Of a DNA stretch of 64,000 bases, positions 10,091 through 25,878 are shown in pieces. The notes beneath the pieces were generated by a model. The model was given only the letters and a program-made list of their open reading frames with translations, searched no databases and was not told the origin of the DNA. Made by a program: the position numbers and the translations under genes. The stretch is taken from the NCBI RefSeq assembly GCF_003334405.1, contig NZ_QOWM01000005.1; one strand, given 5' to 3'. Within the stretch, counting starts at the first letter, position 1. Each line of letters starts with the position of its first letter. Source of the DNA: Escherichia coli. GTDB taxonomy: Bacteria > Pseudomonadota > Gammaproteobacteria > Enterobacterales > Enterobacteriaceae.

Positions 10091-10624
10091 ATGCGCCTGC
10101 TCCCTCTCGTTGCCGCAGCGACAGCTGCATTTCTGGTCGTTGCCTGCAGTTCTCCTACGCCGCCGCGTGGCGTGACCGTAGTAAATAATTTCGACGCCAA
10201 ACGTTATCTCGGTACCTGGTATGAGATTGCCCGTTTTGATCACCGCTTTGAACGTGGACTGGAAAAAGTCACCGCAACATACAGCCTGCGTGATGACGGC
10301 GGCCTGAATGTCATTAATAAAGGCTATAACCCTGACAGAGGAATGTGGCAGCAGAGTGAAGGGAAAGCGTACTTTACCGGCGCACCAACTCGCGCTGCGC
10401 TGAAAGTGTCATTCTTTGGTCCTTTCTATGGCGGTTATAACGTTATTGCACTCGATCGGGAATACCGCCATGCGCTGGTTTGCGGCCCGGACCGCGACTA
10501 CCTGTGGATACTCTCCCGCACGCCAACCATTTCTGACGAAGTGAAACAGGAGATGCTGGCAGTCGCGACCCGGGAAGGGTTTGATGTCAGTAAATTTATT
10601 TGGGTACAGCAGCCTGGTAGTTAG
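10091..10624 (+). CDS. blc: Outer-membrane lipocalin Blc (177 aa)
   Basis: ORF track; lipobox VVAC; lipocalin motif GTWYEIAR. Confidence 0.93.
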
Positions 10625-10938
10625 TGAGTGCTGAGTTTCAGACCAATAATCCCCAATACGATTAACGCCAGACTCGCCAGGCGCATCGGGTTAGCGGACT
10701 CACCGAGCAGCACAATGCCGGTTATGGCCGCGCCGACTGCGCCAATACCCGTCCACACGGCATAAGCCGTCCCTACTGGTAACGATTTCATCGCCCAGGC
10801 AAGTAGCGCCATACTGACAATCATCGCCGTCACAGTAATAACACTCGGCGTCAAACGACTAAAGCCGTGGGTATATTTCAGGCCAACGGCCCATACCACT
10901 TCCAGCAGACCAGCAATAACTAAGATAATCCAGGACAT
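10621..10938 (-). CDS. gdx: SMR-family guanidinium exporter Gdx (SugE), 105 aa
   Basis: ORF 10621..11088; start at [10 protein letters not shown] (ATG 10938); four-helix SMR sequence. Confidence 0.93.
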
Positions 10939-10954
10939 ATCAGGCTCCGGAGAA

Positions 10955-11002
10955 TTGGGGCCGTCCCCGGTGAAAAGAGGCGTTTGCAGGTCGTCCTGCA
11001 AA
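10955..11002 (-). ncRNA. Guanidine-II (mini-ykkC) riboswitch in the gdx 5' leader: two hairpins with ACGR loops (gcagg-ACGA-cctgc and ccgggg-ACGG-cccc)
   Basis: Both hairpins read directly on the minus strand, ~19 nt upstream of the gdx ATG; gene context (SMR exporter) fits. Confidence 0.7.
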
Positions 11003-11113
11003 GCTGATGGTTGAACGGATATTTTGCCAGGTGGCAGGGGAATTTCAACTATTACCTTTGTGACTATCGCAGAAAAAACAAACGGCACGACACAGCTGTC
11101 GTACCGTTATTGC

Positions 11114-11260
11114 TTATTGCTGCGCTTTCGTTGCTGCGCCAGAAATCGCGTTACCGCCATCAGAAATGTCTTCACCAACGCCACGCGTGGTGTTGCAGGC
11201 AGTTAATACTGTTGAAAGCACCAGAACAGAAAAGATCGCTGCAATTGTCTTCTTCACCAT
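11114..11260 (-). CDS. ecnB: Entericidin B lipoprotein (48 aa; [48 protein letters not shown])
   Basis: Hand-translated; below ORF-track cutoff; lipobox LTAC; paralogue of ecnA. Confidence 0.85.
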
Positions 11261-11370
11261 AACGTCTTCCTTTTAGGTAATGTTATTTATGTTTGCCTAT
11301 AGCAAATTAATAATAGACAACATCGCCAAAAATGATGGGAATCTGATGATTTTTCGGAAGAGAAGAAAAA

Positions 11371-11496
11371 TTAGCTGGCAGCGCGAGAGATGGAGTTGCC
11401 GAGATGTTTGATGTCTTCGCCGAAACCGCGAGCGGTGTTACAGCCCGTGAGCAGCGTGCTGGCAAGCAAAACAAGAACGATAAGGCGTTTCATCAT
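11371..11496 (-). CDS. ecnA: Entericidin A lipoprotein (41 aa; [41 protein letters not shown])
   Basis: Hand-translated; below ORF-track cutoff; lipobox LTGC. Confidence 0.85.
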
Positions 11497-11547
11497 CTCT
11501 GACCTGAATAAGTGATGGTGCAGCCTGCAGGCCGCACCACAACCGCA

Positions 11548-12114
11548 TTACTTCACGCGAGAGACGTATTCACCAGAGCGGGTATCCACTTTGATGACTT
11601 CGCCGATTTGTACAAACAGCGGAACTTTAACCACAGCGCCAGTAGACAGGGTAGCCGGTTTGCCACCAGTACCTGCGGTATCACCTTTCAGGCCCGGATC
11701 GGTATCAACGATTTCCAGTTCAACGAAGTTCGGCGGAGTAACGGAGATCGGCTGACCATTCCACAGAGTTACGATACACTCTGCCTGATCCAGCAGCCAT
11801 TTAGCGTTGTCACCAATTGCTTTTGCATCAGCAGACAGCTGCTCGAAAGTTTCGTTGTTCATGAAGTGCCAGAACTCACCGTCGTTGTACAGGTAAGTCA
11901 GGTTCATATCGACAACATCAGCGCCTTCAGCGGAATCAGTAGATTTGAAGGTTTTTTCTACGCGAGTACCGGTCAGCAGACGACGCAGTTTAACGCGAGC
12001 AAATGCCTGGCCTTTACCCGGTTTTACGAATTCACTCGCTTCAACCGCGTAAGGTTCGCCGTCTAACATGATTTTAAGACCAGCACGAAAATCGTTGCTA
12101 TAGTACGTTGCCAT
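11548..12114 (-). CDS. efp: Translation elongation factor P (188 aa)
   Basis: ORF track; KPGKG loop carrying modifiable Lys34. Confidence 0.97.
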
Positions 12115-25186: not shown

Positions 25187-25262
25187 GCCCGGATAGCTCA
25201 GTCGGTAGAGCAGGGGATTGAAAATCCCCGTGTCCTTGGTTCGATTCCGAGTCCGGGCACCA
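25187..25262 (+). tRNA. pheU: tRNA-Phe (anticodon GAA), 76 nt with encoded CCA
   Basis: gcccggatagctcagtcggtagagcaggggattgaaaatccccgtgtccttggttcgattccgagtccgggcacca read directly. Confidence 0.97.
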
Positions 25263-25299: not shown

Positions 25300-25878
25300 C
25301 GTTTCAGGACGCCACGATTTAAGCGTTCTGCCTCCAAATCAATTCTACCGAACTCAACCAGATTCTCCCCACATCACCAGCAATTTGCGGGCATATCCCA
25401 ATTCGGGAAAATTTGTTCCTGAGCTATAGCACTAACTGACGTGAAATGTCGTGCGGCCCCGTGATGCTGTTGAACGTCAAATGACGTCATCAGGAGCGTA
25501 ACGCATCCATAAAGCACAACACCGGTCTGAACGGCGACTGATGAGATTTTCTGAATGAGAACAAAGAGAAATGTATCAGTTCGCTTGCTCATGCAAAGAC
25601 TAACAATCCATTAAAATAGTAAGTGCTCCGGACAATTTTCCATGGATTATTTTCTGAACATTTTTCTTTGGCAAAGATGATGAATTTTGATGGTAAGGAA
25701 TATTACTTCTGGTTCTCAGTAAAATCCTTTCGTAATACTATGTAATCAAGAAGTTTATGGCTGGTAAAAATAACGTCTTGCATTCACCAATAATATGTAA
25801 ATAAACCCATCTATAGATGGTAAAAATAGGTTGTGGCAATTATCATTGCATCATTCCCTTTTCGAATGAGTTTCTATT

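Follow-up and report, generated by a model that had tools for sequence, protein, structure and literature searches.

The stretch of DNA analysed here (the window) spans 64,000 nucleotides of Escherichia coli, and between sugE, also named gdx (10621..10938, minus strand), and efp (11548..12114, minus strand) it carries two short ATG-initiated reading frames, both on the minus strand, which appear in an open reading frame (ORF) listing with a minimum length of 20 amino acids: one of 41 amino acids on the efp side (11371..11496; RefSeq WP_000977757.1) and one of 48 amino acids on the sugE side (11114..11260; RefSeq WP_000239596.1). They are ecnA and ecnB, two known genes of the E. coli chromosome that encode paralogous prolipoproteins of the entericidin family. 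Over the 601 nt around the locus, identity to E. coli K-12 MG1655, as to many other strains, is 100%, and this segment is matched in all of the complete E. coli genomes searched (5426/5426). In the annotation of the K-12 record, efp and epmB are the neighbours on one side of the locus, with sugE (gdx), blc, and ampC on the other, and the RefSeq products at exactly matching positions are named “lipoprotein antitoxin entericidin A” (ecnA) and “lipoprotein toxin entericidin B” (ecnB). EcnA passes the NCBIfam equivalog model NF007319 (114.9 bits, with a cut-off of 86) and EcnB passes NF007487 (121.9 bits, with a cut-off of 94), while the Pfam model PF08085 (Entericidin) matches both (E = 7.6e-06 and E = 5.9e-07). 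In a single pairwise comparison, the two proteins are 55% identical (E = 4e-14), and therefore their resemblance is not due to chance. The placement typical of the family, after efp and before sugE/blc, is found in the window as well as in dozens of Enterobacterales loci. An earlier, sequence-only reading of this DNA had recognized two minus-strand lipoprotein ORFs of 48 and 41 amino acids between gdx and efp, with the lipoboxes LTAC (EcnB) and LTGC (EcnA) and a shared core CNT(T/A)RG(V/F)GEDI, and had identified them as the paralogous entericidin pair. The ORF listing bears out the coordinates and the lengths, the motifs are found in the translations as described, the pairwise comparison supports the paralogy, and the RefSeq annotation at the same coordinates, along with the Pfam matches and the equivalog models, confirms the identification. 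The genes were described in 1998, and virtually all E. coli genomes carry them as annotated features; they were thus already known, and the window adds nothing new.

Both proteins possess the features of bacterial lipoprotein signals: a basic n-region, a hydrophobic h-region, and a lipobox of the pattern [LVI][ASTVI][GAS]C. In EcnA, the signal peptide covers residues 1-18, and the lipobox L-T-G-C, containing Cys19, is followed by Asn at the +2 position, leaving a mature peptide of 23 amino acids; in EcnB, the signal peptide covers residues 1-21, and the lipobox L-T-A-C, containing Cys22, is likewise followed by Asn, leaving a mature peptide of 27 amino acids. The lipobox and its cysteine are kept in all the orthologues aligned, the +2 residue is Asn in 99 of 100 orthologues (Asp in one EcnA orthologue), and EcnA also shows a weak match to Pfam LPAM_1. 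Each protein would be exported via its Sec-type signal peptide, with lipidation predicted at Cys19 (EcnA) or Cys22 (EcnB), followed by cleavage by signal peptidase II, and, as the +2 residue in both is Asn and not Asp, the Lol pathway would, by the +2 rule, carry both to the outer membrane, the expected end products being lipopeptides of 23 residues (EcnA) and 27 residues (EcnB). EcnB is listed as an outer-membrane lipoprotein and is the most abundant lipoprotein of the outer-membrane blebs of Shigella sonnei, making up 8.4% of the protein mass (PMC4820968). These bleb proteomics agree with the predicted location of EcnB. The lipid modifications of its Cys22 are asserted in UniProt “by curation,” and the intact protein escapes top-down mass spectrometry, presumably owing to the lipid (PMC12529367).

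Neither ecnA nor ecnB is present in the default ORF list of the window, which has a cut-off of 60 amino acids. The sequence-only reading had held that this cut-off hides at least four real genes, counting ghoT and pmrR with the entericidin pair, and its count is upheld by RefSeq, whose annotation of the corresponding K-12 record has exactly four intact coding sequences shorter than 60 amino acids within the window, with ghoT at 34732..34905 (minus strand, 57 amino acids) and pmrR at 55609..55698 in window coordinates (minus strand, 29 amino acids, with a 1-nt offset from the record). What the list does contain are two likely spurious frames antisense to ecnB (11011..11262, plus strand, 83 amino acids, and 11024..11206, plus strand, 60 amino acids), a likely spurious frame of 184 amino acids antisense to efp (11512..12066, plus strand), and an over-extended sugE frame (10621..11088, minus strand), lengthened from 105 to 155 amino acids via an upstream GTG and running through the sugE riboswitch. 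The ecnA/ecnB pair therefore presents a clean positive control, with the 60-amino-acid cut-off losing four annotated genes in 64 kb and substituting spurious antisense ORFs for them.

The riboswitch in question, of the guanidine-II (mini-ykkC) type (RF01068, 50.4 bits), occupies 10956..11002 (minus strand), within the spacer between ecnB and sugE and shortly upstream of sugE/gdx, and fits the name of the latter, gdx denoting a guanidinium exporter, in agreement with known biology. It was the only feature returned by a permissive Rfam search of 10900..11600, which found nothing in the ecn genes or in the spacer between them, and a terminator-like match produced by a simple scan (11002..10983) is its P1 hairpin, with an ACGA loop. 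Other features of the window lie farther away. A match to the Rfam “sRNA” family STnc630 (55602..55767, minus strand, 181.8 bits) fully contains the 29-amino-acid pmrR ORF, and for this reason the “sRNA” is evidently the pmrR mRNA; pmrR overlaps the opposite-strand gene pmrB/basS at the latter's 3' end, and the 1-nt shift of the window relative to the record NZ_CP032667.1 at pmrR implies one indel between window positions 34905 and 54533. Four tandem copies of naRNA4 (RF02564, a REP-derived nucleoid-associated RNA), at 100-nt spacing, are located between yjdM and yjdN (61433..61809, plus strand), and a tRNA-Phe gene (25187..25262, plus strand) is followed by a frameshifted integrase fragment (25460..25619, plus strand), the two being the remnant of a genomic-island integration site.

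The 110-nt spacer between ecnA and ecnB (11261..11370, minus strand), as read from its sequence, contains the promoter and the 5' untranslated region of ecnB. On the minus strand, these include a sigma-S-type -10 region TGTC-TATTAT (approximately 11319..11310), a downstream -10-like pause element TGCTATAGG (approximately 11304..11296), and the Shine-Dalgarno sequence AAGGAAG (approximately 11272..11266). The promoter block TTGTCTAT(G/T)(C/A)TTAAGTxGCTATACAC is conserved across Enterobacteriaceae, species without ecnA included, being TTGTCTATGCTTAAGTxGCTATACAC in most genera and partly kept in Erwinia and Pantoea. In vitro, the sigma-38 holoenzyme uses the ecnB promoter, sigma-70 uses it poorly, and the -10-like element causes a pause at +17/+18 that depends on sigma-38; an OmpR site overlaps the promoter (PMC5389655). 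Repression by OmpR is also published. A sigma-70 promoter scan found no promoter upstream of either ecnA or ecnB, a result consistent with a sigma-S promoter, as the scan does not model sigma-S. At the level of mRNA, ecnB is also lowered by MicA, a sigma-E-dependent small RNA (PMC3551931), and RNAduplex predicts a pairing site for the 5' end of MicA over ecnB codons 1-11 (11229..11259, minus strand). With the MicA sequence used for pairing verified as RF00078, the duplex of its nucleotides 1-28 with ecnB has an energy of -24.2 kcal/mol, compared to -12.7 +/- 2.9 for 500 shuffled targets, of which one was as good. Synonymous divergence in ecnB is lower in codons 2-11 (pS 0.46) than elsewhere in the gene (0.62-0.70), and the predicted MicA pairing would explain the unusually conserved EcnB signal peptide. 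The gene is followed by an intrinsic terminator called by the terminator scan (11081..11108, minus strand), with a 12-bp stem and then TGTTTTTTCT, whose fold (-21.4 kcal/mol, z = -6.8) was equaled by none of 200 shuffles.

As to ecnA, it starts 51 nt past the efp stop codon, and the interval contains a GC-rich hairpin (11511..11544, minus strand; -22.6 kcal/mol, z = -2.6) that has no T-run and was not called by the terminator scan. This hairpin is probably a weak or partial efp terminator, and its lack of a T-run makes read-through from efp into ecnA plausible. The Shine-Dalgarno sequence of ecnA, judged in the same way from the sequence, is weak. The two genes also differ in their responses: an inhibitor of LolCDE induces ecnB 6.7-13.5-fold and does not induce ecnA (PMC5105897), and published mRNA data show that the two respond differently to bovine faeces. 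We regard ecnB as a separate transcription unit, with a sigma-S-type promoter of its own, repression by OmpR and MicA, and a strong intrinsic terminator. Expression of ecnA, close behind efp, is probably much weaker.

The pair is a fixture of the species. Of the 5426 complete E. coli genomes, 5425 contain a 401-nt ecnAB segment, and in 5415 of these a single piece holds at least 80% of the segment. One of the exceptions is E. coli IAI39, in which an IS1 is inserted in the ecnA-ecnB spacer (L124, 1748..2445) and probably displaces some of the sequence that precedes the ecnB promoter, while both genes are intact. The 13 matches in the plasmid collection are mostly mislabelled chromosomal fragments or chromids and give no evidence of mobility. 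The comparison beyond E. coli employed one genome per species and a degenerate nucleotide pattern encoding the core CNTxRGxGEDI, and it covered at least 120 loci, these being the first pattern matches and not a systematic sample, with some of the loci coming from metagenome-assembled genomes. Among the matches listed, the order epmB | efp-ecnA-ecnB-(regulator)-sugE | blc is conserved across Enterobacterales. As the search pattern biases codons 1-11 of the mature peptide toward conservation, selection was also computed outside the pattern. In 50 species with both genes intact, dN/dS for the mature peptide of EcnA is 0.08 overall and 0.16 outside the pattern, and for that of EcnB 0.05 and 0.08, respectively. 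In the same species, synonymous divergence of the mature peptides is near saturation (pS 0.65-0.69) with little amino acid change, all the third codon positions being variable and the amino acids kept, and the start region and the lipobox of ecnA are conserved. The in-frame pN/pS of 0.04-0.34 compares to 1.8-4.0 in shifted frames (approximately 1.8 in those of ecnA). Given the low dN/dS in frame and the high pN/pS in shifted frames, both ecnA and ecnB are under purifying selection as proteins.

The core motif is not restricted to Enterobacterales. Among the matches listed, it is also present in small lipoprotein genes, single or tandem, of Halomonadaceae, Aeromonas, Sphingomonadales, and Nitrosomonadales, as well as in Verrucomicrobia (Chthoniobacterales, Akkermansiaceae) and Planctomycetes. 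The entericidin family is therefore broad, and distant lineages have gained or kept tandem pairs. Examples of such tandem pairs are found in Billgrantia/Halomonas (L013, L019, L035, L046, L079) and in Chthoniobacterales (L080, L083). Some members are larger: those of Verrucomicrobia possess long C-terminal extensions ending in PPQWPK, and one from an alphaproteobacterium (L076) is fused to a domain of approximately 100 amino acids. A PDB sequence search with EcnB returned no solved relative.

Within Enterobacterales, the two genes do not always travel together. In a tally that took in variants with GGD for GED and the LNGC lipoboxes of Cedecea, by way of a looser pattern and tblastn, 61 of the 80 loci that include the efp 3' end, among the matches listed, possess both ecnA and ecnB, 16 possess ecnB without an intact ecnA, and three possess a single ecnA-type gene. 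Clean deletions of ecnA, leaving an efp-ecnB spacer of 150-230 nt, are seen in Kluyvera, Superficieibacter, Pseudescherichia, Phytobacter massiliensis, Silvania, and one strain of Enterobacter asburiae. In Salmonella enterica subsp. arizonae (L077, 2649..2943) and Citrobacter amalonaticus S646 (L082), ecnA is frameshifted but recognizable, and in Intestinirhabdus alba (L057) a short remnant of the ecnA C-terminal peptide remains in a 553-nt spacer next to an intact ecnB. All of the ecnB-only loci keep the ecnB promoter and a near-invariant EcnB. Likewise, the Keio deletion of ecnA is viable (PMC7296081). The sequence-only reading had named frameshifts in relatives as evidence that would speak against the two genes; these do occur for ecnA, in some lineages only, while in most species ecnA is intact and under purifying selection.

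How, then, should the pair be understood? That one or both of the ORFs are chance frames, or that ecnA is an untranslated relic in E. coli, is very improbable. It is for ecnA that this possibility has some appeal, considering its weak Shine-Dalgarno sequence and its decay in some lineages, as well as the record of the protein: EcnA is undetected in the proteomes of Shiga-toxin-producing E. coli (PMC3686733), and we found no detection at the protein level, nor a mention of it in PMC12529367. However, ecnA evolves as a protein-coding gene (dN/dS of 0.16 even outside the pattern, against approximately 1.8 for pN/pS in shifted frames), it has a conserved start region and lipobox, it passes its equivalog model, and its mRNA is measurable and regulated, according to published mRNA-level evidence. 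EcnB, for its part, has been directly detected, being one of the small proteins that mass spectrometry picks up most consistently, with up to ~70,000 copies per cell (PMC12529367), and it is also detected in Shiga-toxin-producing E. coli (PMC3686733). Of the two products, EcnB has proteomic support from many studies, and for EcnA we found none. A more serious contender is the annotated function itself, a genuine chromosomal toxin-antitoxin (programmed cell death) module, in which EcnB is a bacteriolytic toxin that has to be neutralized by the antidote EcnA, and the balance shifts toward lysis in stationary phase at high osmolarity. The wording of the sequence-only reading, an antidote/bacteriolytic module, is accurate as an account of the literature, and whether the pair functions as a real toxin-antitoxin system is a separate matter. 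The annotated antidote/bacteriolysin function reportedly originates with Bishop et al. (1998, J Mol Biol 280:583), and it lives on in the RefSeq product names. According to two citing papers, over-production of EcnB raises stationary-phase lysis, and ecnA in cis reduces it (PMC7296081; 10.1101/505081), and the tandem A-then-B order, present in 61 of the 80 Enterobacterales loci among the matches listed, would also suit such a module. Yet we regard this function as rather doubtful. Coupled expression, expected of a toxin-antitoxin pair, is not what we find: ecnB has a conserved sigma-S promoter of its own, the two genes are regulated independently and respond differently, and in IAI39 they are separated by an IS1. 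Nor does ecnB depend on ecnA for its maintenance: 16 of 80 loci, among the matches listed, keep a near-invariant ecnB with its promoter although their ecnA has been lost or has decayed. Knocking out ecnA leaves cells viable, the “toxin,” one of the cell's most abundant small proteins, reaches ~70,000 copies per cell without killing (PMC12529367), while the “antitoxin” is undetected (PMC3686733), the pair is a fixed core gene pair and not a patchy mobile module, neither protein matches any of the PADLOC defence-system models at E <= 1, and a homologue in Agrobacterium showed no lytic or pore-forming activity (PMC7296081).

Lysis could alternatively be directed outward, with EcnB released, for example on outer-membrane vesicles, to kill competitors, and with EcnA protecting the producer. 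Enterobacter sp. C6-6 reportedly secretes an EcnB homologue of ~3 kDa that is bacteriolytic to Flavobacterium psychrophilum (Schubiger, 2015, cited in PMC7296081), outer-membrane blebs are rich in EcnB (PMC4820968), and the Agrobacterium homologue is surface-exposed and carried by vesicles (PMC7296081). We nevertheless find such an antagonism/immunity pair improbable: producers of EcnB without ecnA are common among the matches listed, mature EcnB is almost invariant across genera, unlike the diversifying bacteriocin-immunity pairs, and expression of ecnB goes with stress (the sigma-S, sigma-E/MicA, and OmpR regulons) rather than with competition cues. A further possibility is that the “toxin-antitoxin” label is a misnomer, EcnB being a core and very abundant outer-membrane lipopeptide that belongs to the sigma-S and sigma-E stress regulons and has a role in envelope structure or homeostasis, lytic only as an artefact of over-expression, and EcnA being a recent duplicate, of low abundance, that tunes EcnB. 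If EcnA merely tunes EcnB, then the repeated discard of ecnA, with ecnB unchanged, is explained. In this complete form, we give the proposal an even chance. To our knowledge, lysis on over-expression is the sole function demonstrated in E. coli, and it is for this reason that we infer, rather than observe, a structural or stress role for EcnB.

Overall, several of the results, the retention of ecnB without ecnA, its own promoter, and its abundance, fit a classical toxin-antitoxin module poorly, and, as the key genetic prediction of such a module fails in the loci compared, we treat “toxin-antitoxin” as a historical label. At its native level, EcnB would belong to the general and envelope stress regulons as a conserved and abundant lipoprotein of the outer membrane, and EcnA would be a dispensable paralogue modulating EcnB, not an obligatory antitoxin. 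We hold with high confidence the joint interpretation that these are the known ecnA and ecnB genes, that ecnB is a separate unit, that EcnB is an abundant outer-membrane stress lipoprotein, and that EcnA is a dispensable modulator. The identity of the genes, their family, their lipoprotein signals, their conservation and selection, and the independent losses of ecnA are established by the present analysis; regulation, abundance, and lysis come from publications, and the sorting to the outer membrane, the MicA site, and the physiological role are our deductions. This matters beyond the locus, as the NCBI toxin and antitoxin product names have been propagated to thousands of genomes while resting on a single over-expression study, and they fit poorly with both the comparative pattern, of ecnB kept and ecnA repeatedly lost, and the published abundance.

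Among the known systems, the entericidin locus ecnAB of E. coli and Citrobacter freundii is not just similar but is the same locus, identical in sequence, coordinates, lipoboxes, gene order, and position between efp and sugE. One difference within the group is in the ecnB-sugE spacer, which in Citrobacter, Enterobacter, and Salmonella is of ~900 nt and contains a gene for a LuxR-type regulator (~200 amino acids), while in E. coli it is of 175 nt, without the regulator. This regulator was reportedly named ecnR in the 1998 paper. In Citrobacter werkmanii (L005, 9775..10374, plus strand) it is a protein of 199 amino acids, encoded on the opposite strand and RcsA-like below cut-offs; regulator-bearing spacers are also found in L006, L009, L012, L077, and others, and the gene is absent from E. 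coli, Klebsiella, Kluyvera, Pseudocitrobacter, and Shimwellia, with spacers of 130-230 nt. A second point of comparison is the class of OsmB, Lpp, and Pcp/SlyB, small and abundant outer-membrane lipoproteins of E. coli induced by stress, which share with EcnB a short lipoprotein with Asn at +2, dependence on sigma-S and osmotic stress, very many copies per cell, and a high content in outer-membrane blebs. These have no sequence relationship to the entericidins, which are set apart by lysis on over-expression and by pairing with a paralogue. A third is presented by the chromosomal toxin-antitoxin systems with small membrane toxins, of type I (Hok/Sok, Ibs/Sib) and type V (GhoT/GhoS, which is located within the same window), in which, as in ecnAB, a small envelope peptide reportedly kills on over-expression and a neighbour counteracts it. 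However, the two entericidins are paralogues, and each is an exported lipoprotein; the “toxin” EcnB is a constitutively abundant core gene product while the “antitoxin” ecnA has been repeatedly lost alone, and there is no antisense RNA, RNase antitoxin, or shared operon control. A further parallel comes from Agrobacterium tumefaciens, whose Atu8019 belongs to the same Pfam family and is, like EcnA and EcnB, a small lipoprotein, found in the outer membrane and in vesicles, but, unlike ecnAB, it is encoded by a single gene with no partner, showed no lysis or pore formation, and has been assigned a role in vesicle docking and adhesion (PMC7296081).
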